A stretch of DNA of 64,000 nt from a virus, in IMG/VR virus record IMGVR_UViG_3300025121_000886, positions 29,151-93,150 of that record; one strand, written 5' to 3'. Within the stretch, counting starts at the first letter, position 1. Each line of letters starts with the position of its first letter. The notes below the pieces were generated by a model that was not told the origin of the DNA, did no database searches, and was given only the letters and a program-made list of their open reading frames with translations. Both the position numbers and the translations under genes were made by a program. Positions 7,974 through 56,421 of this stretch are shown here, one piece after another.

Positions 7974-8903
7974 ATGAGGTTTGAGATGAATATCAAAAAA
8001 ATTTTCAATGCATTGGGTGATATGCATATAGTTTCAGCCAGACTCAAGACTCGCGGAGAAGATGGGTTAGCTTCTCGTATAGAACGTCTTGCAGATAAGA
8101 TGCTGAATGAGGTTGTTGATGAAGATGAAGCTTCAGACGACCGAAAGAATAGAGTAGCATCTATGTTTGAAGAGGGAGTCACACCAGAATTTGTAGATGC
8201 AGAAGACAGTTATTCTGGCGATGATTATTTAGAAGAATATCCCATAGACGACGAAGAATATATTGATGAGGAGTCTCCCGTTGAAGATTTATCGTTAGAT
8301 GAGTACCCGGTAGAAGACGAAGGTTTTATCGATGAAGAACTCCCGGTTGAAGATGAATATTATGAAGATGAAGACCTTAATCTTTCTGATGAATATGCTA
8401 CAGAAGACACATTTTCTGAAGACGAATATTTAGGAGACAATTATTCAGAAGATGAATATCCTATAGAGGATGAGAATTTAGATTATAATGATAACGAGGA
8501 TTTTGATCTTGAGAGTATTGATCTTCAAGCCAGTAGAGTATTTGATGTTTCTGGTAGAAGGATAAGATCGTCAGCTGATCTTAGAACAGCTGAAGTAGAT
8601 TTTACTCAAAGTGAGTTTATTACAGCAGCAGGAAAAAAACCGAGTAGATCTGAAGTTGCCCGTTCTTTTAGAAAGATGAAACAAAAAAAGGGAAAAAAAA
8701 AGACTTATGTCTGTTGTGAGAAACCTAGATTAAAGACCACTCTTAGCGGTGGGAAAAAGATATGGTATTCAAACTGCAAGTATAAAGCAAAATCTTCAAC
8801 TGGAAAACCAATGTTAGCAAGTGTTTTTCGAGTTGTAGGGAAGGACCCTAGAAAAAAACCCAGATTTATCATGATGCATAATAAAAAAATGAAGTATTGT
8901 TAA
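7974..8903 (+). CDS. Hypothetical head-associated protein: acidic repeat core, basic C-terminus (likely start 7986)
   Basis: EYP(I/V)(D/E)DE..IDEE.PVED repeats; Lys-rich tail; carries shared helical tag. Confidence 0.65.
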   Translation: MRFEMNIKKIFNALGDMHIVSARLKTRGEDGLASRIERLADKMLNEVVDEDEASDDRKNRVASMFEEGVTPEFVDAEDSYSGDDYLEEYPIDDEEYIDEESPVEDLSLDEYPVEDEGFIDEELPVEDEYYEDEDLNLSDEYATEDTFSEDEYLGDNYSEDEYPIEDENLDYNDNEDFDLESIDLQASRVFDVSGRRIRSSADLRTAEVDFTQSEFITAAGKKPSRSEVARSFRKMKQKKGKKKTYVCCEKPRLKTTLSGGKKIWYSNCKYKAKSSTGKPMLASVFRVVGKDPRKKPRFIMMHNKKMKYC

Positions 8904-9032
8904 CGTCTCAATTTTTGTAATTTTAGGATTAGAGTTATATAGCTGTGAGGCGAGTCCACGTTTGATTTATATATTAGCTTTTATCTAAGGATTTCAGAAA
9001 ATGAGCAAAATAAATATTAGGAGATTTATATA

Positions 9033-10193
9033 ATGGCACTTATTAATCCTTTCAATCCTTATTCTCAAAATAGAACAGCATCAACTGTTCCAGAATATGT
9101 TACTGATAACGGTGAACCAGTAATGGAAACGTTGCGCGCTGGTATTAAGAAACCTAGAAGTGGAAAAACTTCTTTTTCTAATTCTACTCCTCTTATTGCA
9201 AGCAATGGTGAACTTAACGCCACCAGTAAAAGGGACCTCATGAAGAATATGCTTACCATGAGGGATATGGTTCAACAGGGGAAAATCCGCAGATCTTCAG
9301 CTGATATAACCAGACAGAGATTAGCTGCTCACAAAGAACTTTTAAGACAAGCCTTCAATGAGAGAAATAGTCAAGTATTTGAAGCGATTGGACAAGTTAT
9401 TTCTGATGAAATCTATGAATCAATGGGAAGAGAAGGTTTTGCTCGAAATGTTTTAGCTTTCTGTCCTCTTGAAGGAGATGAAACAGCTCGTATTAAGATC
9501 AGAACCAAGGATGTTATTTCTTATGTTGTGACGGCGAACCCTGAAGTGGTTGCCTGTCATGTAAGAGCCCATTGGCTGTATCCACAAGAATTTTATTTGA
9601 TATGCACTCTTTTAGCAGAAAATAAAGATATTGCTCAAACCGGTGGTACTTTAATTGATGATAAATACCAAGACGGTATGGAAAGCATTTTTGTACAGGA
9701 AGATCTGGTATGGAAGACCCTTGCTGATTTAGCTGCTCCTGCACAGAATAACCTTTATGTTTTTAATACCTTAACACCTTCTACTTTCTCAGCCCTTAGA
9801 ACTCAGGTGTGGAGATGGGGTATTACACCTACGACAGCTATTATCTCTTTTGATCTGTGGGATGATATAATCACCGATTCAGAGTTTGCTAATTGGTGGT
9901 CAGAGGTAGCGAAACATGAAATCATTCTCACCGGAAAAATTGGTGGTCTCCTCGATGTAGAACTTAGAACAGATGGGTATCGTCAAGAAAATTTACAGGT
10001 TTTAAATCCTGGTGAAATTTATATGTGTGGTGCTCCAGAAAGTTTGGGAGCAATTTGTGAACGACAACCAGTAATTTCTAAACCAATTGATCAAGCTGTG
10101 TTACAACGACCACAAAGAGGATGGTATTTGGAAGCGATCGAGGGTATGGCTATTGCCAACTCGAAAGCTATCTCAAGAGGCTATCGAGTATAG
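9033..10193 (+). CDS. Major capsid protein (HK97 fold)
   Basis: 386 aa; REGFARNVL, QED..W, G.IG.L..V, GEIY..APESLG, GW...EGMAI.N pattern; strong RBS; position in head module. Confidence 0.8.
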   Translation: MALINPFNPYSQNRTASTVPEYVTDNGEPVMETLRAGIKKPRSGKTSFSNSTPLIASNGELNATSKRDLMKNMLTMRDMVQQGKIRRSSADITRQRLAAHKELLRQAFNERNSQVFEAIGQVISDEIYESMGREGFARNVLAFCPLEGDETARIKIRTKDVISYVVTANPEVVACHVRAHWLYPQEFYLICTLLAENKDIAQTGGTLIDDKYQDGMESIFVQEDLVWKTLADLAAPAQNNLYVFNTLTPSTFSALRTQVWRWGITPTTAIISFDLWDDIITDSEFANWWSEVAKHEIILTGKIGGLLDVELRTDGYRQENLQVLNPGEIYMCGAPESLGAICERQPVISKPIDQAVLQRPQRGWYLEAIEGMAIANSKAISRGYRV

Positions 10194-10242
10194 GCTTTAG
10201 TTGTTTTCCTTTAAAAGTTAAAAGAATGTTAAGATAGAAATC

Positions 10243-10274
10243 GGGGAGATATTTTTCTCCCCCCCTCTCTTTTC
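10243..10274 (+). terminator. Probable intrinsic terminator after capsid gene
   Basis: GGGGAGA-tatttt-TCTCCCC stem followed by a pyrimidine tract. Confidence 0.45.
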
Positions 10275-10309
10275 TCAAAAAATAATATTACATGCTTGAG
10301 GAGAAATTT

Positions 10310-10903
10310 ATGAAGTTAATTGAAAAAATAAATTTGGTGATGAAAAAAGCTCAAGCGCGCGGTGAGACAAATACAGTGATTGAACTTCAAAGAATAGCAT
10401 CTGAATTAAAACCGATAGATAACAGAAATATCGATAGAAGTTCAGAATCTAAGATTTCTAATTATGATGCTGATGCTGATGTCTTTATTAGAGAAATTAA
10501 GGAAGTTGCTAATTCACTGAAGGCCAAAGGCGAATTTGCTTATGCAAAGAATTTAACGGCTGCCGCTCAAGAATTTGTAGAACCACGCGAAGCTTCAACT
10601 TCTATAAACACAAAAGAAGATAGAGAAGCCAAAGAATGGGCAGGTCTTATATCAGAAGTAGCTGATGTGGATGAAAAATTGGCTAAAAAATTAATTACAG
10701 CCCTTTATGAAGTAGAGTCAGCTAAAAAGAGTAAAGCCAAAAAAAATAAAAAAGCTGAAGACGTAGAAGCTGAAGATGAAGAAGATACTTCTGAAGAAGA
10801 CGAGGATTATTCTGAAGAGGATGAAAAAGATTATTCAGAAGATGAAGAAGATACCGAAAAAGATGGAAAGAAAAAAGCTAAGAAAAAGGGAAGAGAAAAC
10901 TAG
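10310..10903 (+). CDS. Hypothetical protein with two copies of the shared helical tag and an acidic/basic tail
   Basis: ORF track start 10292; ATG 10310 follows GAGGAG. Confidence 0.7.
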   Translation: MKLIEKINLVMKKAQARGETNTVIELQRIASELKPIDNRNIDRSSESKISNYDADADVFIREIKEVANSLKAKGEFAYAKNLTAAAQEFVEPREASTSINTKEDREAKEWAGLISEVADVDEKLAKKLITALYEVESAKKSKAKKNKKAEDVEAEDEEDTSEEDEDYSEEDEKDYSEDEEDTEKDGKKKAKKKGREN

Positions 10904-11401: not shown

Positions 11402-11486
11402 TCGTTTTTGTATATAAAATTTACTCGATTTTATAGGAATATCATATTAAAAAAATGCACGTTTAAAGTTGTGCTTGGAGGTTTAT

Positions 11487-12380
11487 ATGCACATAGAAAC
11501 TGAAAAATTAGCCGCTAAAAAGTTGGATTCTATTATTTATAAAATAGATAAGGTCGCATCAGATTTTGAAGAAAAAGGATACACAGATTTATCTACTATG
11601 TTAGATATGGTATCTCATGAGATATTGGCCGGTATTGAACCTTCTGAATCAAATCCTCCTATTGGATTGAAGGGTGCATCTAATGTTTTATTATGGCAAG
11701 ATATGATGAAAACTTATGGGGATGAAATAAAAAAATATCCAGACACACGAACACGTTGGGCTGCCGCTTTAGCTATTCTGGTTAATGTAGCAAAGCGTAA
11801 AGCTATCCCCATTCCTATTCCAGAACTTGTTAATATAGTAAACCCTAAGGCAGAGATTGTAACTGTTGTGCTGGAACTTGATCAAGAAGCTAAGAAGTTT
11901 TCAAGTAAAGTCATAACTTTTGTTAAATCTCAATTTCATGCAATTCCTTATAGAAATCTAAAAAAACAACCTGCTAATTGTGGTTTTGAGAAAAAAAATA
12001 AACTTTATTATTTTGGATATTATTTATGTCTTGAAATACCTCGGGGGAAAGAGGTACCTGTTCAAGATGTAGGGTCTGATTTAAGAGAAGCTTTAATGCA
12101 AAAATTTAGAATGAAATCTACTGAATTTGATGGAGCTCTCTATAAATTAACAGGTGAACGTGACGAGAATTATTCTTATATCACATTCACTGGTGAGGGG
12201 GAAGCCGCACAGGTCTGGTTAACCATGTATTTTTACTATTATTTTACAGAAGATCAAGTAAAAGCAATGTATGATTATATGTATGGGGTTGGTAAAAGCA
12301 CTCGTTTAACGAATGTTAATACTTTAACAAGAGCAATTCAACGTGTGTTAAACACCTGGATTAAACGAGGTATTGAATAA
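11487..12380 (+). CDS. Hypothetical protein with N-terminal shared helical tag
   Basis: GGAGG RBS before ATG 11487; KVASDFEEKGYTDLSTMLD. Confidence 0.7.
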   Translation: MHIETEKLAAKKLDSIIYKIDKVASDFEEKGYTDLSTMLDMVSHEILAGIEPSESNPPIGLKGASNVLLWQDMMKTYGDEIKKYPDTRTRWAAALAILVNVAKRKAIPIPIPELVNIVNPKAEIVTVVLELDQEAKKFSSKVITFVKSQFHAIPYRNLKKQPANCGFEKKNKLYYFGYYLCLEIPRGKEVPVQDVGSDLREALMQKFRMKSTEFDGALYKLTGERDENYSYITFTGEGEAAQVWLTMYFYYYFTEDQVKAMYDYMYGVGKSTRLTNVNTLTRAIQRVLNTWIKRGIE

Positions 12381-18439: not shown

Positions 18440-18886
18440 ATGGATAACAAAAATATTTATAATTTATTAAAAGACATCAAAAAAGATGGCTTTTCTGAAG
18501 AGGCATCTCTTATAAATAAAGCATTAAAAAAATGGGGTGATAATCATAAGGTTATAGCCTCATTTGAGAATACATCTGAGCAAGAAACATTAAACTTAAG
18601 AACTTTGCGACAATGGATTTTAAATGATTACCGAAAAGTAGCATTTGAAATTCATAATGATGGAGTTTTGATTGACCCTGTTGATCAAGAATCTTTTATG
18701 CAAGGACCAGCTATGTTAATCACAGGTCATGGTTTTCGTCCTGTTGAGATAGCAGTTAATGTTTTTGGGGAGGTTGGTATTAATTATCAAGATGGTGCTT
18801 GGTCTAGGAGAAAGGTTCACTCTGAAAATATCATGTCTTTTTATGAGAAACTTAAAAGAATTTTGAATGGACGTAAGGGGGATTAA
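18440..18886 (+). CDS. Hypothetical protein with N-terminal shared helical tag
   Basis: LLKDIKKDGFSEEASLINKAL then VIA-S; GAGG RBS. Confidence 0.7.
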   Translation: MDNKNIYNLLKDIKKDGFSEEASLINKALKKWGDNHKVIASFENTSEQETLNLRTLRQWILNDYRKVAFEIHNDGVLIDPVDQESFMQGPAMLITGHGFRPVEIAVNVFGEVGINYQDGAWSRRKVHSENIMSFYEKLKRILNGRKGD

Positions 18887-24623: not shown

Positions 24624-27600
24624 ATGAGTATTAAAGCTTTTATAGAGTTCGGGTCAAAGGACAGTCCTGAATATTGGAATAAACAACACAAGGACATAAT
24701 ACAGAAGGGTATTTATACAAGTTATACTCTAACAACTGCATCCAGTCCACCTACAATAACAGTCCCAGCATTTTCGGCCATGACTTCACAAGGTATGACT
24801 GTCATTAATGACGCTGATGTTATATTAACCTTAGCAGATGACGGAGTTAACTGCGTATACCTAAGAGCCATTTACAATGCATTGGCAGCAGCAACCATAA
24901 CTTTAACCTCAGACCTTGAAGTAGTATATAACGCTATCCCCCTTGAACAAACAATACTTTTTGCAAAGGTTACAACATCGGGGGGAAGTATAGGAAGTGT
25001 AAGTTTAGCCGAGGCAGAAGTTATAGATGCCGTTGGAAGAAAATTCTGGAGAGACCCTGTGGACACAACCCTCCCGGCTGTTGGTGTTAGCCGAACGGGT
25101 GATCTTGTACTAAAAAAAGATGATAAGGGTATTTATTATTTTAATGGTACAAGCTGGGAAAATATTTTAAATATAAGTGCTCAATGGAAACCTTCTGTAG
25201 CTAATTATGCAAGTCTACCCTCTGTAGGATCATCAACAGATGGCGATGCTGTCGTTGTTAGAGATGAAAATCTGATATACACCCTCGATCCAGCAGATAG
25301 TAAATGGAGACCTATATCAAGTTGGTTACCCCCCGTTGCTAATGAAGGTGATTTACCTATTTTAGGAAGTGCTATTCCACCTAAAACAAATGATTTACGT
25401 CTGGTGGTTGATGAAAGAGAAGTTCATACTCATGGTGGTGATGGTGATTGGCATCCCTTAAATCAATGGAGAACCCCCAAAACAAAAGCTCAAATAGACA
25501 TTTTAACTGGCTCAAATGGTGATGCTAGAGTAGCTACAGACGAGGGAGAAATATATGTTAGATATAGCTCTTCCTGGAAAAAAATAGGAGCTAATGGAAC
25601 TTATCTAACTGTCGGGAATACGACAGGTGATTATATTGGATCAACACAAGCACCTGTCCAAGATGCTATAGGTGCATTACCTTCTACTGGTGGTAGAATT
25701 GTTATTAAACGAGGTACATATACCTTTGACCTACCAGTTTCTATATCAAAACCAAATGTTACAATAGAAGCTGAAACACCTGGATCAGTAAATATTATAG
25801 CAAGTTCACCAATAACCACTCTATTTTCGGTATCTGCTGTCAATTTTAGGATGTATGGGATAAAATTAGATTTAACAGATTCAACATATACTTCTACAAC
25901 AGGAGCGATTTTATTTGGTGGTGCAAGTAGTTCTGAGACAGAAGGTGGAGAAATAATTGACTGTGTATTCGATAAACCATATATAGCTATCAATCTAAAT
26001 CACACTTCTTGTAACAATTCTCTTCCTATAATAATTCAGAGGTGTCAATTTAAAGACGTTCAATCTACATCCGGTGCTGTAGTAATAAAAGCTTCTTTCA
26101 CTCGTGGTGTAATCATATCAGAATGTGATTTTTATTCAAATATTTCTGGAATAAAATTTATAAGCTGTTATCAATCCAAAATAATCAATAATATAGCTCA
26201 TGGAACAACATCAAATAACGGTACATATTTTATTCATGGTGATAATTGCTATAATATTGAAGTAGACGGAAATGATATATACAATACTGATTCTACAGTA
26301 AAATCAAGTGGTTCTATCTATTTTACCAAGGGGACTATATCCCCCATTTGTTATGGAATATCGATAACAAACAATAAAATAAAAGTCAACACTGGTGGAT
26401 GTGCTCAAATAGAAATTTATGGCAACGGATTAGACGATGAGGGGTTTAACATATCTGAAAATGAACTGTATGGTGTTTCCACAAGAGGTATTAAAATAAA
26501 TGCATGTAAAAGGGCAATAATATCTAATAATTATATTGCTTGTGGAAAAACAAATTCTATAGATATCACAAATAGTAACAATATATTGATCAATGATAAT
26601 ATATTAAAGCCCGAAAACAATTCTGGTACAAAAGGAATTTCTATTGATTCTTATTCATATAATGTTATTGCATCCAATAACAGTATCAATTTATCAATAG
26701 GTAAAGGTATAGAATGCTATGCAGATCACAGTATTATCTCAAATAATACTATTATTGATAATACCGAATCAGCTATTTATATGGGATCTGATGGATATTA
26801 TATTGTATCTAACAACAAAATAAGAACAACTGCCTCCACAGAATCATTGGTAGTATTAGAATCATCTGGGGGTGATATTTATGCTGTGACTGTCTCTGGA
26901 AATAATATAACTTCTGATATCACAGTAGGGACAGGTATATATGGTATATATGCACCGGGTGATCTATATAATTCTCTCATAAATAATAATATCTTCAATC
27001 TGTCTTCTACTTCCGGTAACTTTGAGGCGGCAATATCTTGTAATAATATAATAACAACGTGCATTAATAAGAATACAACCAAGGGAAGTGATCTAAATTA
27101 CGGGATAAGAATTCTAAATAGCACGGGTGGCTTAATTTATCGATCCTCGATTAGTGAGAACATAATCAATTTCACAACCTTAGAAGGTATAATATTTTCA
27201 GATATTTATGCTTCTTCTATAAATTTTAATGATATATGCGGATATTCATCGGATCAGTATGGAATAGCCATGTTAGAAGATGGAACACATTCCATACTCT
27301 ATGGTAAAGAAGCTACCTTAATAGGAAACAAGATAAATAATTATGCACATGGAGGAATGTATTTACTTATAGAAACTGATGCAATAATAAGTCAAAATAC
27401 CATTTATACTTTTTCCAGAGATACAACACCGAGTGGACGCGGTATCTATATTATGTCCCATTTAACGGGAAGAGCTGGTGGAAATACTGCATATAATATC
27501 AGAATAGTAAATAACATAATCCATGATGGATATACAGGTATATATGCTTCCATCTCTGATTCAATAATAAGTGGAAATTCTATTTATGACATTGTTAACT

Positions 27601-28022
27601 TTGGTGTTGAATTACCCCACTCTTTAGACGATGGTGAGCACAGTGCTATTAAAAGAAATGTGATAATAACCGGAAATAGCTTCTCAGATATTGATAATAA
27701 AGCTATCTGTGATTGGTCACATATAAGTTTTATAACAATCTCCAATAACACTTTTTATTTATTGTACTCTGGGACGAAAGCTATTTTCTTCACCAATGAT
27801 GGACATGGAATTACCATAAATGGGAATACCTTTTATGTAGATGATAAGGCCATTGACTTTAATAGTACTGATAATTTTATTGGTTTTACTGCAATAGGTA
27901 ATGTGTTTAGTAAAACACTGGTTTTACATACTCATAATTTACCCGATCCAGTTACTACAAAGTCAATAACTTTAGCCAGAATGGAAGATTGTAATGTATT
28001 TGAAGTATCTTTAATATCTTAA
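24624..28022 (+). CDS. Tail spike/fibre with right-handed parallel beta-helix
   Basis: N-terminal W..PV....LP..G...GD repeats; VQDAIGALPSTGGRIVIKRGTY followed by many (I/V)xxN.I repeats. Confidence 0.8.
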   Translation: MSIKAFIEFGSKDSPEYWNKQHKDIIQKGIYTSYTLTTASSPPTITVPAFSAMTSQGMTVINDADVILTLADDGVNCVYLRAIYNALAAATITLTSDLEVVYNAIPLEQTILFAKVTTSGGSIGSVSLAEAEVIDAVGRKFWRDPVDTTLPAVGVSRTGDLVLKKDDKGIYYFNGTSWENILNISAQWKPSVANYASLPSVGSSTDGDAVVVRDENLIYTLDPADSKWRPISSWLPPVANEGDLPILGSAIPPKTNDLRLVVDEREVHTHGGDGDWHPLNQWRTPKTKAQIDILTGSNGDARVATDEGEIYVRYSSSWKKIGANGTYLTVGNTTGDYIGSTQAPVQDAIGALPSTGGRIVIKRGTYTFDLPVSISKPNVTIEAETPGSVNIIASSPITTLFSVSAVNFRMYGIKLDLTDSTYTSTTGAILFGGASSSETEGGEIIDCVFDKPYIAINLNHTSCNNSLPIIIQRCQFKDVQSTSGAVVIKASFTRGVIISECDFYSNISGIKFISCYQSKIINNIAHGTTSNNGTYFIHGDNCYNIEVDGNDIYNTDSTVKSSGSIYFTKGTISPICYGISITNNKIKVNTGGCAQIEIYGNGLDDEGFNISENELYGVSTRGIKINACKRAIISNNYIACGKTNSIDITNSNNILINDNILKPENNSGTKGISIDSYSYNVIASNNSINLSIGKGIECYADHSIISNNTIIDNTESAIYMGSDGYYIVSNNKIRTTASTESLVVLESSGGDIYAVTVSGNNITSDITVGTGIYGIYAPGDLYNSLINNNIFNLSSTSGNFEAAISCNNIITTCINKNTTKGSDLNYGIRILNSTGGLIYRSSISENIINFTTLEGIIFSDIYASSINFNDICGYSSDQYGIAMLEDGTHSILYGKEATLIGNKINNYAHGGMYLLIETDAIISQNTIYTFSRDTTPSGRGIYIMSHLTGRAGGNTAYNIRIVNNIIHDGYTGIYASISDSIISGNSIYDIVNFGVELPHSLDDGEHSAIKRNVIITGNSFSDIDNKAICDWSHISFITISNNTFYLLYSGTKAIFFTNDGHGITINGNTFYVDDKAIDFNSTDNFIGFTAIGNVFSKTLVLHTHNLPDPVTTKSITLARMEDCNVFEVSLIS

Positions 28023-28035: not shown

Positions 28036-28476
28036 ATGGCAGAATACGCGGTATTAACAACAAATGGGAGAACATATTTCAGCAAAACCTCTGAAGGTTG
28101 GGCAGTTTATGTCTATAGATTTTCTATAGGGACAGGGGGACATAATCCAACGACCTATGAGCCCTTAGAAATAACCGATATAGATATTGATGATTTAACC
28201 ACTCCCATTGAAATATCTCCAAGTATCACAAAAAAATTGATAACGGCTGTAACTCGACCAAATGATAATAGTATTGCAGCTTTATGTAAGATAGAAGAAG
28301 ATGAAGCTCTAGAAAATAAACTATCTGAGATAGGTATCTGGGCAAACATTTATGATGATTCACAAATTCTCCAAGATGAATATCTCATTGCTGTCGTTCA
28401 TTTCCCTCCCATATACAGAAAAGGTGCTCCCCATACACAAGTCACTTGTTCTTGGAATGTAATCATAAGTTTCTAA
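28036..28476 (+). CDS. Tail fibre/baseplate attachment protein (paralog of 24159)
   Basis: VLTTNGR, FSIGTGGH.P, SEIGIWA, LIAVVHFP. Confidence 0.55.
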   Translation: MAEYAVLTTNGRTYFSKTSEGWAVYVYRFSIGTGGHNPTTYEPLEITDIDIDDLTTPIEISPSITKKLITAVTRPNDNSIAALCKIEEDEALENKLSEIGIWANIYDDSQILQDEYLIAVVHFPPIYRKGAPHTQVTCSWNVIISF

Positions 28477-28487
28477 CGAGGTTTTCT

Positions 28488-28865
28488 ATGTCATTTAAAC
28501 TCCCCAAAAAAGAAGTTCTTTTTGAGCTATCTAAAATAGCTCAAGATTTAGAACACCTAAATAAACCAAATTTAGCTGAAAAACTTGATATGGCCTGTAA
28601 TATATTAGATGTTTCTCCTAAAGATGAGGACATAAAAAAACTGTTTCTCAAATATTTTTCAGAGGCTTCAAGTCATTTTAATTCTATTAGTGATTTTTAT
28701 AACCCTGATTTTCATACAAAGCAGATTAATAATATAAGAAAATTATTAGATAAGATAGAAAATGAACTCAAAAATCCATTAACTTCTTATAATCATGAAA
28801 ATAAAATAGTTAGTTATACCATATTAAACCTATTCAGCTTAATTTTAAAAGAAGCATCTGATTAA
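28488..28865 (+). CDS. Hypothetical protein with N-terminal shared helical tag
   Basis: ELSKIAQDLEHLNKPNLAEKLD; GAGG RBS before ATG 28488. Confidence 0.65.
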   Translation: MSFKLPKKEVLFELSKIAQDLEHLNKPNLAEKLDMACNILDVSPKDEDIKKLFLKYFSEASSHFNSISDFYNPDFHTKQINNIRKLLDKIENELKNPLTSYNHENKIVSYTILNLFSLILKEASD

Positions 28866-31061: not shown

Positions 31062-31556
31062 ATGAATATAAATAGTTCATTCTCAACGGTAATAAATGGA
31101 CTTAAAGTTAAAGGAAAACATTCTTTAGCAAAAAAAGTTCAGGAAAAAATGAAAAAGTTAATGGCAGATGTTATAAAAACTGCTGGCTTTAAATTCACAA
31201 GGATATGGATAGATAGTCATCATGGACCCTCTTTAGCTATTAATTTCAAAGATGAATTACATTATGTAGGTGGTGCGAACTCAAGAGATATGGAAGTTGT
31301 TGTTCAAGGAAATGATTTGTATATTGATACACATGTTCCAAATCAAGACATAAGGTCTTGTGAACTTCATGAACTTGGTAAAGGTGATATCCTCAGAGCT
31401 GAAATATTTGAAAGAGGAAGTGATCAATATGGAGAAAAAGTAGAAATATACTCTTGTACCAGAGAAATGACCTTCCAGGGCGAAGATTATACAGAAGAGA
31501 TTGCTAATATGGATACAAAAGAATTTATAGATTATGCAGAAAACTATATGTTTTAA
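31062..31556 (+). CDS. Hypothetical protein with N-terminal shared helical tag
   Basis: VINGLKVKGKHSLAKKVQ then KTA-G. Confidence 0.7.
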   Translation: MNINSSFSTVINGLKVKGKHSLAKKVQEKMKKLMADVIKTAGFKFTRIWIDSHHGPSLAINFKDELHYVGGANSRDMEVVVQGNDLYIDTHVPNQDIRSCELHELGKGDILRAEIFERGSDQYGEKVEIYSCTREMTFQGEDYTEEIANMDTKEFIDYAENYMF

Positions 31557-31597: not shown

Positions 31598-32041
31598 ATG
31601 AATCAATTAAATACCCTAAAAGATATATTTAGAACAGCCCAGATGCTTGAAAAAGATGGTCATGGTATAGAATCTATAAAACTATACTCTAACATTTTGA
31701 ATATGCTTGGAGAGAAAGATCCCTGCAATAAAATCATAAAAGATATTGAGGAAAAATATGAATCATATCAAGACCATTTTCAGAAAACAGGGTCTGAAAA
31801 AGTTAGTCCTAATCAAAAAAAGAGACAGTCTTTACAAAAAAGCATAGACAAAATTGTAGAGATCATAAGTGCTATGAGAGCAGCTAGAAAACCTTTATTA
31901 GCTAAATTACATGGCAGTATTTTACCAAAACTTGCTTTAGGACTTCGTTTAAAATTAAAGATATTAGCTGATAAAATAAAAAAGTTAGAAGAAAAAGTAG
32001 AAAAGTTACGAGAACAAAAGAAAAAAATTGCTGACAAATAA
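31598..32041 (+). CDS. Coiled-coil hypothetical protein with N-terminal shared helical tag
   Basis: RTAQMLEKDGHGIESIKL; GGAG RBS. Confidence 0.65.
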   Translation: MNQLNTLKDIFRTAQMLEKDGHGIESIKLYSNILNMLGEKDPCNKIIKDIEEKYESYQDHFQKTGSEKVSPNQKKRQSLQKSIDKIVEIISAMRAARKPLLAKLHGSILPKLALGLRLKLKILADKIKKLEEKVEKLREQKKKIADK

Positions 32042-32046: not shown

Positions 32047-32805
32047 ATGTTCTCAATCTTAATCCCAACCTGTATTCAAAGACTTTCTATAACAAAAGAT
32101 TTAATACTTCAGATCATAAAGACAAATCCACAAACCATAAAAGATAATCTATTAAAAATATACATGACATTACACATCCCCCGTCTTGATAAGCATAATG
32201 CCAAGATTATAGAAGAATTATCTTATATAAAAGAGATAAAAATAATCTACCCCAAAAATACTCACATCTCAAAAAACTTAAATATTATGTTAACAACAGC
32301 CTTACATGAAAATATATCAGATGAATTATATCTCATTAAAATAGATGACGACACATATCCACTAGAAAATGATTGGTTAAATGTATATAGAGAAGTATAT
32401 AATAGAATACCGGGTGTCGGAGTATTATATTCTTGTAAAACTTTAACTGAAATATATGAAAGGCTTCTTAATAATATTGGAATAACAAGTCAAGAAAAAA
32501 GCGGTATGCTTATGTTTTTCAATAGAAAAATAATTAATAAATTGGGTGGTTTTCAGGAATTGCTTGATCCTTATGGTAATGAAGACCTCGATTTCTTACT
32601 TCGTTCTGAACTTTCCGGTCTTAATAATTATGGAGTTCTTAGAACGGGAGATCACGGTATCTCAGTAAAACATGGAAAAGAAGTATATCCCAAATTAAAC
32701 AGTTGCTTTGATAAAAACGCTAGAGAATTAGCACAAGAAAAATTTCAGAGTATAAAAAAAGAATATCTGACAAAAAACAGATCAACAAAAATATATTTGG
32801 AGTGA
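32047..32805 (+). CDS. Glycosyltransferase family 2
   Basis: FSILIPT, KIDDD (DxD), LGGF...YGNEDLDF. Confidence 0.8.
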   Translation: MFSILIPTCIQRLSITKDLILQIIKTNPQTIKDNLLKIYMTLHIPRLDKHNAKIIEELSYIKEIKIIYPKNTHISKNLNIMLTTALHENISDELYLIKIDDDTYPLENDWLNVYREVYNRIPGVGVLYSCKTLTEIYERLLNNIGITSQEKSGMLMFFNRKIINKLGGFQELLDPYGNEDLDFLLRSELSGLNNYGVLRTGDHGISVKHGKEVYPKLNSCFDKNARELAQEKFQSIKKEYLTKNRSTKIYLE

Positions 32806-33329
32806 TTATGGGAAATAATATAAAAACAATAGAATTTGAAAATTTTTTGGTGTCTAAAAAAGACATGCTAGAAGGTCTAAAATCAATAAAAACGGGAAGA
32901 TCTAGCAATGAGCCATTATCGTTACCCTCTAAAGTGATAGAAATTCCGGACAGAAAAGTATTTTTATACATAGGCTGTATAAAAAAATTGGTGTCCATGA
33001 TGCTCTATGGAAAATTGTCTACAAAGTGTGAAATGCTTGATATGAACGAGTCCCAATATTATGAGGTACCTTCTAAGGGAGAAGCATTCATTTTCGATCC
33101 TGATGAAAGATATGGTGGTCTAGAAAAGATTATGAAGATGTCTGATCTCGATGCATTATCAGCACAGATAAAATTAAATAAACCCCTTAAGAAAATAAAA
33201 CCCCGTCAAGCAAATTATGATAAAAAACCAACTCTTAGCGACATAGTCTATGAACTTGAAATACGTGGGAAGACTGTTTTAGCCGATAAACTCCAAGAAA
33301 AAATTCAGGATATTAAAGAGGAGATATAA
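32802..33329 (+). CDS. Hypothetical protein with C-terminal shared helical tag
   Basis: DIVYELEIRGKTVLADKLQEKI. Confidence 0.6.
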   Translation: MIMGNNIKTIEFENFLVSKKDMLEGLKSIKTGRSSNEPLSLPSKVIEIPDRKVFLYIGCIKKLVSMMLYGKLSTKCEMLDMNESQYYEVPSKGEAFIFDPDERYGGLEKIMKMSDLDALSAQIKLNKPLKKIKPRQANYDKKPTLSDIVYELEIRGKTVLADKLQEKIQDIKEEI

Positions 33330-35545: not shown

Positions 35546-35788
35546 ATGAAAAATCTTATGGAAAAAATAGGTAATATCTTAGAAAAAAAGGGTGATCCTC
35601 TGGCAAGATACACAAAAAGATATGCAGCAGAAGATGGGGGAAAGAGAGATGAGTATATGAAACTCTTCAAAGATACTCTGGAGAAATTCAAGGTAAACAG
35701 CCCATCAGAATTAGATGAAGGAGAAAAAATAAAGTTTTTTAAGGAAATCGATAAAAACTGGACATCTAAAGAAGAAAAAAAGGATTGA
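35546..35788 (+). CDS. Small protein with N-terminal shared helical tag
   Basis: EKIGNILEKKGDPLA..RYA-A then EYMKLFKDTLEKFKVNSPSEL module; GGAG RBS. Confidence 0.7.
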   Translation: MKNLMEKIGNILEKKGDPLARYTKRYAAEDGGKRDEYMKLFKDTLEKFKVNSPSELDEGEKIKFFKEIDKNWTSKEEKKD

Positions 35789-37974: not shown

Positions 37975-38361
37975 ATGAGATATTCCAAGGACATTCTGGA
38001 AGATATGGCTGTGATGATCAGGGAATCTGGTCTAATAGCTGAATCTCATAAGATATTAGACATTATCGAAAATTTTGGTTTAGGGGCGGGGACAAAAAGG
38101 TTAATAATTGCGGAGGATACTGAAAATATTAAAGTGAAAAACCCCGGAATTCTGGAAATACCACAAGGTAAATCATTTTTAAGTACCCCCACCACACATT
38201 TTATAAAGCTGGTGAATAAAAAGGGGAAAAAAGCGGTACAACTCGCTTTATTGAACCTTGAACGATGGAATTCAGCTTCTAATAAAAAAGGTGATCCGGA
38301 TATCAGGAAGAAAGCGAAAGAAGTTATAGATATGATAAAAAAGATGAAAATACCTAAATAA
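37975..38361 (+). CDS. Hypothetical protein with N-terminal shared helical tag
   Basis: EDMAVMIRESGLIAESHKILD then IIA-E; AAGGAG RBS. Confidence 0.7.
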   Translation: MRYSKDILEDMAVMIRESGLIAESHKILDIIENFGLGAGTKRLIIAEDTENIKVKNPGILEIPQGKSFLSTPTTHFIKLVNKKGKKAVQLALLNLERWNSASNKKGDPDIRKKAKEVIDMIKKMKIPK

Positions 38362-39530: not shown

Positions 39531-41231
39531 ATGTTAGGAGAATTTGATCCTATCCTACAAGAAGCTCTAGGAAAAGAATATTGGAGGGTTTATCACCCCT
39601 TTTATAAAGATAAAAAAAATAAACCACCCGAGTATGATGAAGGTCTTGTACTTCCAATCGATTACTTCACAAAAATATTAGGTGAACACCATATAGAACA
39701 CAAAGGATTACGCGTTTTAGAACTTGGTTGTGCTACTGGTATATCAGTCAATATTATGAGAAAAACTGGGATAAATGCTTTCGGTATCGAAATTTCTAAT
39801 TATATTCTCAATCAAGATCAATTAATCCCACCTGAAGTGAAACCATATATCTATCATATGGATATCAGAAATCTTGATATTTTTCCGGATAAAGCTTTCG
39901 ATTTATGCTGGAGCAATTCTATTGTACACATCCCACCTGAAAACATTCAAAAACATTTAACAGACATATCAAGAATATCTGAATATTTCTTTGTACATAC
40001 AATTTGTGAGGAAGATCCTTTCGGACGCTATCTATTATCCTGTGAAAATGAAAAGAGAGAGAGAATGATCTGGCATGGATTAAAATCTTGGCCTTGGTGG
40101 AAATATCAATTTGCTAAGGCTGGTTGGTGCCATCTAGGAGTAACATTTCCCCCTTATTGGAGTGGTTGGAATTTATTCTGTAACACAGCCTTTGAGAAGA
40201 GGTATATAAAGGGAGCAAATGAACTTCTTCTAAACGAAACAATAAAAGAAAACTCAGAGAGTAAGTATCCAAGACAAGGAGATATACTCTCTTTATTCAT
40301 CGGTGAAGAATCCCTGAGAATAAAAGGAGCTAATTCTATTGATTTTTCCTCATCTTTTGCCAATGGTCTAAAACCACTCTATGATCGATATGTTTATAGA
40401 CCTAAAAAATATATCTGGGGTGACAAAACTGTTATGATCCTAGATAATGAAATGGGGGATAATTATATAGATGAATTGGCAGAACTGACAAAAATTCATG
40501 GTAATATATTAGGTGTAACCCCAAATATAGCAAAAAAACTTCAAAAGATAGATAATTTTTATAGATATACCTTAAGAGAACCCTTATTTTCTGTAAAGAA
40601 TATCTTAGCCTTGAGAAGTCAAAGATATTATGAAATCAGAGCAGGAAAGAAACTATATGAAAATAGATTGATGTATAAAAATATCTTTTCTGAAGACCTC
40701 GATATCCCTAAAATTCTAGAATTTATCTACAAAAGCTGGGAGATCATTTTGGAGAAAGATGTTTCTTATAACGTACGTATTAACATAGCTGATTATACTC
40801 CCTGGTATAAATATCTCTATAATAGCCTAAAATTTGTGGATAAAAATGATTTATTAAACACAATACCCACATTTAAGATATTAGAAAAATATGTAGACAA
40901 CCCCGAATGTATTATTTTAGACCCCTCTATGATACATGGGGAAGTTATTTATGATAAAGACAACATTGTTGCTCTATGGTTAACATACAGGGCAACCCCC
41001 AAAGTTTCTATGCAAGCAATCAGATTTTCTGATCTTACCTATAAATTTTTATCCGATTACATAATCTATAGATCTGCATTAAATCAACCAGATGAAGTCG
41101 AGTTCATAAATGATATGGGGGTCACAAAAGAAGAAAAATTATTTGATTTTAAAAATCGATATGCTGAGATGTATACAAAAAATATAATACTTCAATACAG
41201 ACATCGAAGAAAAGGAGAAAATAAAGAATGA
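39531..41231 (+). CDS. Class I SAM methyltransferase fused to DUF2156 (aa-tRNA-dependent transferase-like) domain, copy 1
   Basis: VLELGCATG...GIEIS...FPDKAFDL; C-term EPLFSVKNILALRSQRYYEIR...VEFINDMG...LFDFKNRY. Confidence 0.75.
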   Translation: MLGEFDPILQEALGKEYWRVYHPFYKDKKNKPPEYDEGLVLPIDYFTKILGEHHIEHKGLRVLELGCATGISVNIMRKTGINAFGIEISNYILNQDQLIPPEVKPYIYHMDIRNLDIFPDKAFDLCWSNSIVHIPPENIQKHLTDISRISEYFFVHTICEEDPFGRYLLSCENEKRERMIWHGLKSWPWWKYQFAKAGWCHLGVTFPPYWSGWNLFCNTAFEKRYIKGANELLLNETIKENSESKYPRQGDILSLFIGEESLRIKGANSIDFSSSFANGLKPLYDRYVYRPKKYIWGDKTVMILDNEMGDNYIDELAELTKIHGNILGVTPNIAKKLQKIDNFYRYTLREPLFSVKNILALRSQRYYEIRAGKKLYENRLMYKNIFSEDLDIPKILEFIYKSWEIILEKDVSYNVRINIADYTPWYKYLYNSLKFVDKNDLLNTIPTFKILEKYVDNPECIILDPSMIHGEVIYDKDNIVALWLTYRATPKVSMQAIRFSDLTYKFLSDYIIYRSALNQPDEVEFINDMGVTKEEKLFDFKNRYAEMYTKNIILQYRHRRKGENKE

Positions 41232-42850
41232 TAGGTGAATTTGACGAAAAAACACAATCCGCTTTTAATTCATACTATTTTGACAATTATTCTAAAGAAG
41301 GATATGGGGGAGAACGATCGGTTTTAAATATAGAAAACTTTTTATTAGTCCTTAAACAAGCAAAAATAATAATACCCGATAGAAAAAAGTTTAGAATATT
41401 AGAATTGGGTTGTGCTGATGGCAGAACAGTAAAAGAGTTAAGAGATTTAGGCTTTGATGCTTACGGTATTGAAATAAGTCAACATATGCTAAAAAAGGTT
41501 GAGCCTGAAATAAAAAAGTATATTTACTTTATGGATATCAGAAATCTAGAAATATTTAAAGATGATTCTTTCGATCTGGTGTATAGCAACAGTCTAATGT
41601 ATCTTAATCCAGAGGAACTTGATAATCATCTGGATGAACTTCATAGAATAAGCAAATACATTTTTGCACATATTCTATGCAAGGAAGATGCTTTTGTAAA
41701 ATATTTAGAGAAAGAAGATTCAGAAAAACTGTATTCTTATATCTCAAACTATAAAGAATTTCCAGAGATGGAATTCCTTTTTGCTACACATGGGTGGGAG
41801 TATGAAACACATATAATGCCAGAAGGATGGTCCGGATGGAATCTTTTTTGTAAAAATAGTTATGGAAAAGGGATGAGTAGATTAAAAACATATCTAGCTT
41901 CATCTGGAATATCTGAATTTACCGTGTTTGCCAGAGATTCTTTACAAAAAAGAAAAAAATCTGGGATAGAAACTTCCAGAAATATAACAGCTGGTCTCTG
42001 CATGAATAGAGCATTACAGTTTTGTAGATATCAATATCAATTTTTCATCCTAGATCAAGGATTTCATCCTCTTGTAACTGATCCTAATCAAATTACAGAA
42101 GGGGCTAAAGAATATTTAAAAAATTTAGATATAACTTCAATTTATGGAATTCCTGAAAAATTTGTAGATATTTTCACAGAATGTGGTTATAGAATAATTA
42201 ATGAAATGAAAGACCCTCTGTTTTCAATATCCAAGATATTAGAGGCATCTGGAAATAAATATCAAGAGATAAGAACCGCAAGAAAATTATATGAAGATGT
42301 CAACCCCCCTACACATAGCACAAAGCACATAAATCAGCTAAACTTCAGAAGTTTTTTTAGAGATAATGAAAAAGGCTATCTTGAATTACAAGATTTTGTA
42401 AAAAGACAAATAATAGAAATATCTAAGAAGCCAGATTTTACTATATTTTCTCTAAGAATATTGTCTAATGTATATTTAACTTATAAAAAGATATTGGAAG
42501 ATTTATATCACGAAATAAATTGTCCAGATACCTATAATTTACACGAATCTTGTATATTTGATACAAGCTGTGTAAATGGAGAGATTACCACAGATTCTGA
42601 TAAAATAATAGGATTTTGGTTAACCGCTCAAATGAATTCTGATACAGCCCTTCAAATATTTAGATTAGCAGATAGGTATTATACTTATTTAGCTGATTAT
42701 CTGGTTTATAGATCAGCCTGGGGACAGTTAAGGGATGTAGAATATATGAATGACATTGGTTTATTAGAAGAAGAACAACAAAACTTAAATATTTTTAAAG
42801 AAAGATATAAAGAGAAAGAAGTCATTTGCTTCAAAGCGGTAAAAATCTGA
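41228..42850 (+). CDS. Class I SAM methyltransferase fused to DUF2156-like domain, copy 2
   Basis: ILELGCADG...GIEIS...FKDDSFDL; C-term DPLFSISKILEASGNKYQEIR...MNSDTALQIFRLAD...VEYMNDIG; ATGA coupling to copy 1. Confidence 0.75.
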   Translation: MIGEFDEKTQSAFNSYYFDNYSKEGYGGERSVLNIENFLLVLKQAKIIIPDRKKFRILELGCADGRTVKELRDLGFDAYGIEISQHMLKKVEPEIKKYIYFMDIRNLEIFKDDSFDLVYSNSLMYLNPEELDNHLDELHRISKYIFAHILCKEDAFVKYLEKEDSEKLYSYISNYKEFPEMEFLFATHGWEYETHIMPEGWSGWNLFCKNSYGKGMSRLKTYLASSGISEFTVFARDSLQKRKKSGIETSRNITAGLCMNRALQFCRYQYQFFILDQGFHPLVTDPNQITEGAKEYLKNLDITSIYGIPEKFVDIFTECGYRIINEMKDPLFSISKILEASGNKYQEIRTARKLYEDVNPPTHSTKHINQLNFRSFFRDNEKGYLELQDFVKRQIIEISKKPDFTIFSLRILSNVYLTYKKILEDLYHEINCPDTYNLHESCIFDTSCVNGEITTDSDKIIGFWLTAQMNSDTALQIFRLADRYYTYLADYLVYRSAWGQLRDVEYMNDIGLLEEEQQNLNIFKERYKEKEVICFKAVKI

Positions 42851-47292: not shown

Positions 47293-47508
47293 ATGAAAAA
47301 TATCGAGTTAGAAACCAACCCCCACATAAACAAACTTCTTAAAATAAAACAAATAATAAAAGAAGGTTGCCTATGTATTTATTGTATCAAAAGAAACAGT
47401 AGGGGTAAAAATCGATATGATCGAGGGGAAAATGTCGGAAGAAGCAGAAAAACCAACAGAAATTGGAAAAAATACAGAAAACAACAATGGAAAACAAAAA
47501 ATCATTGA
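47293..47508 (+). CDS. Small basic hypothetical protein
   Basis: CIYC; RNWKKYRKQQWK. Confidence 0.5.
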   Translation: MKNIELETNPHINKLLKIKQIIKEGCLCIYCIKRNSRGKNRYDRGENVGRSRKTNRNWKKYRKQQWKTKNH

Positions 47509-48701
47509 ATTCTTTTCATACTTAAAACAGCTTCAACCGGAACTCTATATTCTCTCTCTGGTGCATGATATGTAATACCCTTTGTGGTCATATCGATGTC
47601 ACATTCTAAAATTCCAGCGTCTTTGACATTTTTATTTTTATATTGTCTCAAAGCATCCCCTCTAATTCCCGATGAAATAACTGGATTTCTCCTCAATTTG
47701 GACACCCAAAAATAATGAGTATAATACTCAAATACTTCTTCTGAATTCTCAGGGGGATAATTGTGTATTGTTCCCTCATCATATGCAGTTTTAGGATCAA
47801 GACCCTCAGAAATATACCATTTTCTAATATCATCCCATTTGAGATCACCATTAGCGATCATTATCACCTCTTTTAACACCCTCAAAATATCCCGAGCTAT
47901 ATAAAGATCTGTGGTGAATGATATTTTATCTGAATCACCTAACCCTAAACCTCTTCTATCATCAGGAACTTCCTTCTTAAACCAATTTTTTATAATATCA
48001 TCTGCATGAATTGTAGCATGGTATAATTTCTCAACCTTGTCTGGATCGGGTTTGTATTCCAAATCCATCTTCTGTAACCTGTACTCTTCATTTATTTTAG
48101 ATTGTAATTCAGGTATAAATTTGGCTATATCCTGAAATAAACTTGTCATCTTCTTAATAAGATCAAGATACTCTTTTTTATTTTTATCAGTATTATATTC
48201 TCCAAAATTCTCTTCTAGAGCATCTTTATATTTAAAAAGATAATCATCAATAAATTTTAGATCAAATCTAGATTTTAATAATTTTACGGATCCTTCAAGT
48301 TCTGAATATTTATTAGAAGCATTAGATTCATATGCCTTAAATAAATAGCGTAATACCCCTCTAATTTCATCACAGACCTTCGATAATATTAAAATAGGGG
48401 TTCTGTTAAGGTCGCCTCCATTTTTTATCGTATCATCAATGAAAAGCTCAAAATTACTATTCTCCTCATATTTAGCTACAACATCCACAGACAACTCTGC
48501 TAATAAAGAAGCATATTTTTCTAGCTTTTTAGCATTATTCTTAAGATAAACAAACCATTTTCTCGGGGGGTTAACCACCTTGGCAAACTTAATAAGTTTG
48601 TCATATCCCATATCTTCCAATATATTCAACATTTTTGTGAATTTATTCATAGGCTCAAAAACCTTTTTTAGCAAATTGATTATTAAATTTAAAAAGTTCA
48701 T
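47502..48701 (-). CDS. Putative ADP-ribosyltransferase-fold protein with shared helical tag
   Basis: LYHAT...ISFTTD...PEREYRV triad in the C-terminal domain; N-terminal MLNILEDMGYDKL. Confidence 0.55.
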   Translation of the reverse strand: MNFLNLIINLLKKVFEPMNKFTKMLNILEDMGYDKLIKFAKVVNPPRKWFVYLKNNAKKLEKYASLLAELSVDVVAKYEENSNFELFIDDTIKNGGDLNRTPILILSKVCDEIRGVLRYLFKAYESNASNKYSELEGSVKLLKSRFDLKFIDDYLFKYKDALEENFGEYNTDKNKKEYLDLIKKMTSLFQDIAKFIPELQSKINEEYRLQKMDLEYKPDPDKVEKLYHATIHADDIIKNWFKKEVPDDRRGLGLGDSDKISFTTDLYIARDILRVLKEVIMIANGDLKWDDIRKWYISEGLDPKTAYDEGTIHNYPPENSEEVFEYYTHYFWVSKLRRNPVISSGIRGDALRQYKNKNVKDAGILECDIDMTTKGITYHAPEREYRVPVEAVLSMKRIQ

Positions 48702-50476: not shown

Positions 50477-50477
50477 A

Positions 50478-50705: not shown

Positions 50706-50743
50706 TTATATTTACAGAATATAAGCCATTCCTGTAAATATAA
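50706..50743. promoter_or_regulatory. Inverted repeat carrying back-to-back CTGTAAAT motifs between divergent operons
   Basis: TTATATTTACAG-14 nt-CTGTAAATATAA. Confidence 0.55.
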
Positions 50744-54210: not shown

Positions 54211-54247
54211 TCTATTCCTCCCAAATTTCTATAGTATAAAAATAATA

Positions 54248-54670: not shown

Positions 54671-54858
54671 TTAATTTTAAACCAATCATAAATTTTTATA
54701 AAATATTCATTGTATTTTACAGGTTTGACCCCAAACTGCTTTTCTACAACCTCAATATCAATCTCATACCCACATAAAAAATTGCTGCATTTAAAAACAG
54801 TCAATAAAGAAAACAACTTCCGATGACAAATAGGACACAATAAATCATGTTTATACAT
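54640..54858 (-). CDS. Small zinc-ribbon protein
   Basis: CPIC...CSNFLC; GAGG RBS. Confidence 0.55.
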   Translation of the reverse strand: MYKHDLLCPICHRKLFSLLTVFKCSNFLCGYEIDIEVVEKQFGVKPVKYNEYFIKIYDWFKINWRMLWKNQS

Positions 54859-54901
54859 AAAAACCTCTGAAACTGTATCAATTCAACAACCAAAATATAT
54901 A

Positions 54902-55207
54902 CTATTGTTCATTATTCAATATCTTCCCAGAAACAGCTGAAAGATCAAGGCTTTTTTCAGAAACAGAAGACCCTAATAATAAATGAAGTTTGTTCTCAGC
55001 AATCTTACATTCAGCATAAGGATAGTATTTCTGAACTTCTTCCATGATCCTCTACAAACTCCCACATGCTCTTATAAACTTATTTTTAAGACCTTTATCT
55101 GCTAAACTTAATAGATCTTCTGGGGTCAACCCTTTTTCCATAAACCTAACAATATCACCATTATCAGCCGGAAAACGAACCAACCACTCAGCATTTTTCT
55201 TATCCAC
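54902..55207 (-). pseudogene. Gene interrupted by an in-frame TAG (55054-55052); similar to 60603-60824
   Basis: AAGGGAG RBS + GTG; reads MDKKNAEW...KFIRACGSL*RIMEEVQKYYPYAECKIAENKLHLLLG...; absent from ORF track. Confidence 0.6.
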
Positions 55208-55218
55208 AAAATTCTCCC

Positions 55219-55836
55219 TTATAATAATTTTCTTGATTGAAAATATTTAAACTGTTCTTTTAATAAATCTTCATCTGTATATTCTAAGCTTAGAGCAATG
55301 CCCACCTCCGATATACTTTTAAAGAATCTTTCTGAAGGAAGTTTCTTTAAGCATTTTCTTGATACATTTTCCCATTCAGCAACGGCAGGTTTTACAAATG
55401 GATTTTCAACGGCATCACAACGACCAATACCACGGGAAATGACTTTATTTCTATTATAATCTGTATAACATGATGAATAACAAGATTCGATGGAATAAAT
55501 CCATAAAAACTCACCTGTAGATCGAGTTTTTTTATTAACATAATTTACCCACGATCCACATTCCGGCTTTAACTCTCTCCCTTCCATCACATTGGGGAGT
55601 CCCATATAACACGAATAAATTAAATTTTTTATATCAGTAATATCTGAATGAAAATCGATATTGATAATCTTATCCCAAACATTTTTGTTAATAAAAGGTA
55701 ATAAATATTCATGTGAATCAACGATTTTAATAGGAATATTTAAAGAGATTAACTTATCAAAAAATGAGGTATAAGAAAATGTTTTGACATTCCAAAAGTC
55801 ACAATCAACAGATAAATAAACCTTTTCAGAATTCAC
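55219..55836 (-). CDS. UPF0489-like (arginase/deacetylase-fold) protein
   Basis: LSVDCDFW, VDSH, NIDFHSD, CGSWV. Confidence 0.55.
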   Translation of the reverse strand: MNSEKVYLSVDCDFWNVKTFSYTSFFDKLISLNIPIKIVDSHEYLLPFINKNVWDKIINIDFHSDITDIKNLIYSCYMGLPNVMEGRELKPECGSWVNYVNKKTRSTGEFLWIYSIESCYSSCYTDYNRNKVISRGIGRCDAVENPFVKPAVAEWENVSRKCLKKLPSERFFKSISEVGIALSLEYTDEDLLKEQFKYFQSRKLL

Positions 55837-55965
55837 ACTAATATTCCTCTATAGGTATATTATTTTATTGATATAAAACAGCACTTCTTTTTTAAGAAAA
55901 ATGTGCTAAACTTTAAAATATAAGCACCTATTATTATTTTACAGATATCATCTAAAAAAAGGAAA

Positions 55966-56421
55966 ATGATCATGCCCAATATTGAAACAATAATTGACAC
56001 TTTAGAAGAAGATGGTTTTCACAAAGAAGCATATATGGCGAATAAAGCAATAAACAAATTAAGAGAATCAGCCACGAAACCTTCAATAATGTCCTATGAC
56101 AAAAGAGACGAATATGTTAAAATGTTTAGGGAAAACATTAAAGCACCAGTTATTGCACCAAGAATCATGTCTCTTGGCGGTGAAGATCGTTTTAGCATAT
56201 CACTTAAATTATCATTAGAACCAAGAGAATCTTGGATAAATGGGATTTATGAAAATTCTAAATATCTCAGTTTCTTTTTAGAAAATGATGGAGAATTGGA
56301 ATTACATTCATGGGGTTTTTCCAAAAAAACCACAAAAGTTTTCAGAAAGACACATGTCAAGTCTGTAGAAGATGCCATCAAGAAAATCAATATTTATATT
56401 TCACAAATTTCTCAAAATTAA
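55966..56421 (+). CDS. Hypothetical protein with N-terminal shared helical tag (solo + strand gene)
   Basis: ETIIDTLEEDGFHKEAYMANKAI then RESA-T. Confidence 0.7.
   Translation: MIMPNIETIIDTLEEDGFHKEAYMANKAINKLRESATKPSIMSYDKRDEYVKMFRENIKAPVIAPRIMSLGGEDRFSISLKLSLEPRESWINGIYENSKYLSFFLENDGELELHSWGFSKKTTKVFRKTHVKSVEDAIKKINIYISQISQN

Follow-up and report, generated by a model that had tools for sequence, protein, structure and literature searches.

A recurrent, mostly N-terminal helix-glycine-helix hairpin in small proteins encoded on a viral contig

The window analysed here comprises 64,000 nucleotides of the virus record IMGVR_UViG_3300025121_000886 and corresponds to bases 29151-93150 of a 93,150-base viral contig from a large uncultured phage, the completeness of which is about 30% by one source's estimate. 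It carries a head-gene module, and its other genes are mostly ORFans. The initial annotation of this DNA had cited 13 segments as instances of a portable, usually N-terminal helix-Gly-helix tag on proteins with unrelated bodies, and had proposed that this element, hereafter the hairpin, is a modular docking tag that loads diverse cargo into the prohead. All 13 cited motif strings are present in the named open reading frames (ORFs) at the places given. The individual sites are listed below in window coordinates (contig coordinates for the genes upstream of the window), together with their scores from leave-one-out profiles and, where available, the number of matches expected per proteome.

55978..56052, + strand: hairpin at residues 5-29 of ORF 55966-56421, the strongest instance (13.8 bits, none expected)
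31077..31151, + strand: hairpin at the N-terminus of ORF 31062-31556, an ORFan (9.7 bits)
11541..11615, + strand: hairpin near the N-terminus of ORF 11469-12380 (7.7 bits)
33231..33305, + strand: C-terminal hairpin of ORF 32802-33329 (4.8 bits, 0.1 expected)
35555..35629, + strand: hairpin at the N-terminus of ORF 35546-35788 (4.4 bits)
28524..28598, + strand: hairpin near the N-terminus of ORF 28446-28865, with Asn replacing Gly (4.3 bits, 0.15 expected)
31622..31696, + strand: hairpin at the N-terminus of ORF 31598-32041, borderline (2.6 bits, about 1.1 expected)
18452..18526, + strand: hairpin at the N-terminus of ORF 18440-18886, borderline (2.5 bits, about 0.85 expected)
10325..10567, + strand: two hairpin copies in ORF 10292-10903, the first at chance level and the second borderline
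8019..8093, + strand: hairpin-like N-terminus of ORF 7974-8903, at chance level (-1.3 bits)
48570..48644, - strand: cited instance in ORF 47502-48701, statistically unsupported (-0.1 bits, about 7 expected)
37993..38067, + strand: cited instance in ORF 37975-38361, statistically unsupported (no leave-one-out match)
Contig 10216-10662, + strand: extra site in an upstream gene, found with the full model
Contig 27115-27519, - strand: extra site in an upstream gene, found with the full model
Contig 26676-27086, - strand: extra site in an upstream gene, an internal hairpin found with the full model

The window ORFs are named below by their first coordinate. ORFs 11469 and 28446 probably begin slightly after the start of their longest frame, and a 297-aa form of 11469 is found in the protein database.

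For the statistical analysis, the 13 segments were aligned on the glycine and leave-one-out hidden Markov models (HMMs, built with HMMER) were run against the proteome encoded by the contig, 119 ORFs with 29,269 residues in all. The reversed proteome, which keeps both composition and helical periodicity, and 20 shuffled proteomes served as controls. A simple log-odds matrix proved too crude with background pseudocounts, and the leave-one-out HMMs were used in its place. Six of the cited segments (11469, 28446, 31062, 32802, 35546 and 55966) score above every reversed and all 20 shuffled proteomes, with at most 0.15 matches expected per proteome. Three more, in 18440, 31598 and the second copy of 10292, give borderline scores for which about one match is expected per proteome. 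The claimed recurrence is thus clear for a core of six of the 13 sites and borderline for three, and it fails for the other four. The full model additionally recovers three sites upstream of the window in the same contig; they score 7-8 bits, where shuffled sequences reach at most 6.3. The scan of a motif HMM against shuffled controls, which had been suggested as a check, therefore yields six sites above all controls and three new ones. A profile iterated on own and related proteins converged at 26 members and failed to generalise; no claims rest on it.

Since shuffled sequences do not model real helix caps, real proteomes were also scanned, with a profile match defined as a score of at least 4 bits. 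The contig itself contains nine matches in 29 k residues, as compared with one in 53 k residues of a T4-like phage of equal GC (guanine plus cytosine) content, none in 68 k residues of cyanophage S-CAM7, five in 122 k residues of two whole relatives, and ten in 406 k residues of 80 related loci centred on the capsid gene. Relative to about 0.65 Mb of other phage protein, the hairpin density is between roughly 6-fold (pattern) and more than 10-fold (profile) higher. For a composition-neutral pattern, this corresponds to 41 matches per 100 k residues in the contig versus 6 per 100 k elsewhere (Poisson p 4e-7). Furthermore, seven of the 12 matches to this pattern begin within 30 residues of the N-terminus, versus 12% expected (p 2e-4), which bears out the earlier description of the element as usually N-terminal, and the glycine lies inside the first 40 residues at 12 of 16 sites. 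The sites located elsewhere are 32802, which is C-terminal and strong, and two internal ones, namely the second copy of 10292 and the upstream gene at contig 26676-27086. Both the recurrence and the N-terminal bias are real for about 9-12 sites, not for the whole cited list.

The column statistics describe a compact element. Numbered relative to the glycine (position 0), the first helix has hydrophobic residues at -11, -8, -7 and -4 and Glu or Lys at -3; the second helix has Leu or Glu at +4, Ala or Ser at +5, and hydrophobic residues at +8, +11/+12 and +15. The motif consists of two amphipathic heptad helices joined by a glycine C-cap, with a small residue where the helices cross. In agreement with this shape, and with the one assigned at the outset, AlphaFold2 in single-sequence mode predicts for 55966 a helix at residues 6-15, a turn at 16-18 and a helix at 19-37 (predicted local distance difference test, pLDDT, about 90), followed by an unstructured stretch at 38-43. 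When an alignment of 48 relatives is supplied, the body of this protein (44-149) reaches pLDDT values above 95, and the hairpin is left without alignment support.

Library searches place the hairpin in no Pfam or PHROGs family, with the exception of phrog_17638, a 50-position family of unknown function that matches only the hairpin of the upstream gene at contig 10216-10662 (E 2e-4). Since 8 of 14 control genomes contain matches to this family as well, it is not specific. A search of the ESM Atlas with the hairpin returned sub-threshold matches only. The SAP, HeH, Rho-N, UBA, helix-hairpin-helix and Nif11 motifs differ in loop length or in the spacing between the glycine and the second helix, and none has library support. 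A repeat or regulatory element at the DNA level beneath the tags was likewise rejected: the fraction of identical codons is 0.44 versus 0.43 expected. Because the codon similarity is no more than the amino acids impose, the hairpins are neither recent DNA copies nor a nucleotide element, and selection acts on them at the protein level, not at the DNA level.

The clearest case of a separable hairpin is 55966, in which the hairpin is followed by a linker and then by a widespread domain of unknown function. This body (residues ~40-149) corresponds to phrog_3308, with 630 representatives at E <=0.001, and is found by itself or as part of proteins with up to ~2,000 residues. The approximately 630 relatives align from query residue 25-55 onwards, all of them without the hairpin; the S-CAM7 homologue, gp097, has 118 residues and likewise lacks it. 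The AlphaFold2 model of 55966 has a mean pLDDT of 90.8, and a Foldseek search of the PDB with this model gave no match at E <=0.001. In 55966, the hairpin is thus external to a domain that other proteins possess without a hairpin. In addition, the hairpin is the sole part that 55966 has in common with 18440 (BLAST E 0.017). For most of the other bearers, modularity is not demonstrable because they are ORFans: 11469 and 31062 find only themselves in a set of 5.8 billion proteins, and tblastn against isolated phages gives no match for 7974, 11469, 18440, 28446 and 32802.

The possible connections of the hairpin with head assembly are best followed along the head-gene module, which occupies the beginning of the window:

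19-2271: large terminase (PHROGs)
2669-4636: portal (PHROGs)
4762-5544, + strand: prohead (head maturation) protease (phrog_18299, E 3e-48)
7093-7854: virion structural protein (PHROGs)
9033-10193, + strand: major capsid protein, HK97-type (phrog_2522, E 1e-50)

The protease, for which neither a Pfam match nor a relative of solved structure was found, is the enzyme that would need to cut off any propeptide-type tag. The capsid protein shares ~32% identity with those of the jumbo phages Lu11 and PaBG and 32-49% with many metagenomic relatives, and it was the anchor with which the 80 related loci (designated L) were collected; a single-protein scan of viral contigs with it found no close relatives.

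The gene that follows the capsid gene in 24 relatives, and likewise in PaBG (gp079), codes for a small acidic protein with a conserved N-terminal hairpin of the same type, which is repeated at the C-terminus in the closest subfamily. Members of this family, which has no annotated function, include L003 11482-11808, L014 3355-3795, L052 11186-11896 and about 20 more, PaBG gp079 being L082 10202-10675. The protein may be a scaffold-like or core component. Window ORF 10292 shares with it the position after the capsid gene, the acidity and the two hairpins. The family HMM does not reach 10292; the two hairpin profiles align in register with a profile-profile probability of 68% (P 5e-5). The sole relative of 7974, L030 9289-9810, is encoded immediately upstream of a capsid gene and likewise opens with a helix-Gly-helix pattern; the BLAST alignment between the two is confined to a Cys-bearing C-terminal domain (E 2e-13). 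This basic domain makes up the C-terminal 100 residues of 7974-8903 and is common to two proteins that are otherwise dissimilar. Collectively, these head-module links are circumstantial.

A different N-terminal helical motif of ~25 residues is common to small genes in L016 and L019, two or three of them next to the capsid gene and one ~4 kb upstream. The genes L016 9267-9840, L019 5735-6040 and L019 9324-9893 have this common start followed by dissimilar sequence. This motif is a second, lineage-specific case of a common N-terminal start.

The hairpin is tentatively regarded as a lineage-enriched, terminal helical-hairpin association module that would probably dock or oligomerise small proteins, with the head machinery as the likeliest partner. 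The element would be a small alpha-helical hairpin of ~25-30 residues, in which an amphipathic helix is capped by glycine and followed at once by a second amphipathic helix, and the phage lineage would have placed it at the ends, chiefly the N-termini, of about ten small proteins. As the hydrophobic face of a two-helix hairpin cannot be buried within the hairpin itself, pairing with other helices is most likely, be they in another copy of the hairpin or in a helical partner. It would therefore act as a general docking or oligomerisation module and not as part of a catalytic or structural body. Head-assembly machinery is proposed as the likeliest common partner since hairpins occur in the small acidic protein and two other bearers have relatives in head modules.

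Nearly as likely is an explanation without any common function, in which the segments are ordinary N-terminal hairpins belonging to each fold, alike by convergence in a Lys/Glu/Ile/Leu-rich proteome, with a few old duplications; helix capping and tight packing allow few sequence solutions, and the hairpins would resemble each other for this reason. Several observations point in this direction or weigh against an association module. The hairpins share only 8-40% identity with one another, and four of the 13 cited sites (7974, the first copy of 10292, 37975 and 47502) are at chance level by sequence alone. The conserved columns are the structural ones, namely the heptad hydrophobics, the glycine and the small residue at +5; the sole conserved polar column holds Glu at some sites and Lys at others, leaving no specific binding surface visible. 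Compared with all PDB sequences, the profile of the 13 hairpins finds its top matches among de novo designed helical repeat proteins, and the pattern is accordingly that of any idealised alpha-hairpin. A Pfam PPR match on residues 6-32 of 31062 is also present, below threshold (15.6 bits versus a cut-off of 25). The whole relatives contain few profile matches and are no richer in the composition-neutral pattern than the T4-like phage, and the relatives' matches are no denser around the capsid gene than genome-wide. Against a head-specific role in particular, the full-model scan detects no hairpin in the scaffold candidate 5599-6987, the protease, the portal or the capsid protein.

The bodies of the bearers are relevant here as well. 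All-against-all BLAST agrees with the initial annotation that they are unrelated, apart from 11469 and the gene at contig 10216-10662, which are plain paralogs over ~108 residues (E 5e-7) and not a portable fusion. Residues 8-79 of 35546 match, together with the hairpin and without interruption at its end, an internal stretch of a 475-residue protein whose gene, in Pseudomonas putida jumbo phages such as vB_PpuM-SKa-4, sits between those for the portal and the prohead protease (PP496438.1 5261-6688); hairpin and body here form one conserved module, not a portable fusion. (In Tenacibaculum phage pT24, 35546 matches a region annotated as DNA ligase 1.) Evidence on the portability originally claimed is mixed: it favours a portable hairpin in 55966, the relatives of whose body lack it, and in 18440, which has the hairpin alone in common with 55966, and speaks against one in 35546 and in 11469 and its paralog; for the bearers that are ORFans portability is not demonstrable, which also suits an absence of common function. 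However, convergence alone fits poorly with several results: the T4-like phage of equal GC content has one match against nine here in half the protein, the reversed sequences keep composition and helical periodicity and yet match rarely, the N-terminal bias is strong, and the hairpin of 55966 is an addition to a domain family otherwise without one.

Two explanations give the hairpin a narrower role in the head. It might be a capsid-targeting propeptide as in the T4 internal proteins, whereby cargo would be docked on the prohead scaffold or core, freed of its tag by the prohead protease and injected together with the DNA; this is considered unlikely. T4 and giant phages use N-terminal propeptides for incorporation into the head (PMC3012670, PMC5694885), a prohead protease is encoded in the window, and 10292, 7974 and 35546 have head-module links. 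Processing affects several virion proteins of PaBG, whose capsid protein becomes ~20% smaller in mass during maturation (PMC7412058). Propeptides of T4 and of the phiKZ/SPN3US phages are cleaved after Glu (PMC5694885). The Glu-type motifs Leu/Ile-x-Glu (T4) and Ala/Ser/Gly-x-Glu (phiKZ, SPN3US) were accordingly sought in the 30 residues past the hairpin, where they are not above random windows (P 0.10 and 0.18). An Ala-Ser/Gly/Thr dipeptide occurs 10-40 residues past the glycine at 11 of 15 sites versus 23-27% of control windows (p 2e-4 to 4e-5); this test was post hoc, and the tendency of Ala-rich helices to terminate in Gly, Ser or Thr confounds the enrichment. A hydrophobic-x-Ala-small motif around residue 55 is conserved among the clade's capsid proteins. 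In their alignment, Pro-Leu-(Ile/Val)-Ala-small-Asn-Gly-Glu lies at residues ~50-62 of 9033-10193, preceded by a variable N-terminal segment of ~55 residues, and this region is a candidate for maturation cleavage. Subject to these reservations, the Ala-small site is suggestive of a cleavage signal. The propeptide explanation is further disfavoured by the C-terminal position of one strong site and the internal position of two others, by the absence of the hairpin from the scaffold candidate, the protease and the capsid protein, and by a sequence far more degenerate than the T4 tag.

Equally doubtful is that an uncharacterised large-phage lineage, a remote relative of Lu11 and PaBG, uses the hairpin as a capsid-address module. 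Such a module would dock varied small proteins, including the products of solo genes in the accessory region, on the prohead core, perhaps through hairpin-hairpin contacts with the small acidic protein, and would then be cut at the Ala-small site by the prohead protease. What stands of the original proposal of a modular docking tag for capsid loading is a short helical module that is over-represented at termini and, at least in 55966, placed ahead of a domain whose relatives lack it; the absence of Glu-type site enrichment and of a visible binding surface in the conserved columns speaks against the remainder. Still less probable, as a minor alternative, is a recognition element for another partner, either a phage modifying enzyme (the glycosyltransferase 32047-32805 or the two methyltransferase fusions at 39531-42850) or a host factor. 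The bearers 31062, 31598 and 32802 do flank the glycosyltransferase gene; this argument is one of gene neighbourhood, the bearers are mostly distant from these enzyme genes, and the hairpin columns contain no conserved modifiable residue.

Comparison with known systems helps to delimit the association module favoured above. The capsid-targeting sequence (CTS) of T4 (IPI-III, Alt) and the longer propeptides of giant phages of the phiKZ/SPN3US type resemble it in being short N-terminal segments on unrelated, scattered small genes of phages that encode a prohead protease (PMC3012670, PMC5694885). The T4 CTS, however, is defined by its place at the extreme N-terminus of the precursor and by being both necessary and sufficient for entry into proheads; its 10-20 residues terminate in a Leu/Ile-x-Glu site that gp21 cleaves, whereas the present hairpin has 25-30 residues and no enrichment of a Glu-type site; it also occurs internally and at a C-terminus and is much more degenerate. 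In the P22 scaffolding protein, a C-terminal helix-turn-helix binds the coat protein and has been used to load foreign cargo into P22 shells. The likeness is that of a small two-helix hairpin (as predicted by AlphaFold2 for 55966), which in P22 docks on an HK97-fold capsid protein. The P22 hairpin is located at the scaffold's own C-terminus; here, the scaffold candidate 5599-6987 has none, and the hairpins are found mostly at the N-termini of many proteins. TPR/PPR and de novo designed helical repeats have similar hydrophobic spacing, a Gly or small turn residue and Ala at the helix crossing; unlike them, the window hairpins are single or two far apart, not tandem, and no Pfam repeat family reaches threshold. 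The cargo-loading peptides of encapsulins are short, extended and usually C-terminal, with a conserved core of the Gly-Ser-Leu type. They are comparable as short terminal tags that address varied cargo to the inside of an HK97-fold shell, yet they resemble the hairpin neither in sequence nor in predicted structure.

If the hairpin genuinely serves as an address or docking module, the proteins that it brings together, possibly inside the head, would be predictable from sequence, and the module could be a handle for loading foreign proteins. Should the capsid-address explanation be true, the packaged and injected proteins of the lineage would become readable from sequence. If it is only a generic hairpin, it is a warning that degenerate amphipathic helix-Gly-helix patterns mimic a tag system, for which the right controls are real unrelated proteomes and matches to designed proteins. 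The analysis also raises two concrete objects, namely the small two-hairpin acidic protein encoded beside the capsid gene in the clade and the tagged and untagged forms of the 55966 domain.

Two further features of the window were noted. The 1,132-residue protein encoded at 24624-28022 contains a right-handed beta-helix region (Pfam Beta_helix, E 3e-17) and is probably a tail fibre or depolymerase rather than a tape measure. The 11-base word TYCTGTAAAWW occurs 10 times versus 1.2 expected (12241, 18903, 22732, 38716, 39463, 44086, 50709, 50730, 58386 and 61298), chiefly in intergenic positions upstream of genes, with two adjoining copies at 50709-50740; the word probably represents a phage promoter element.

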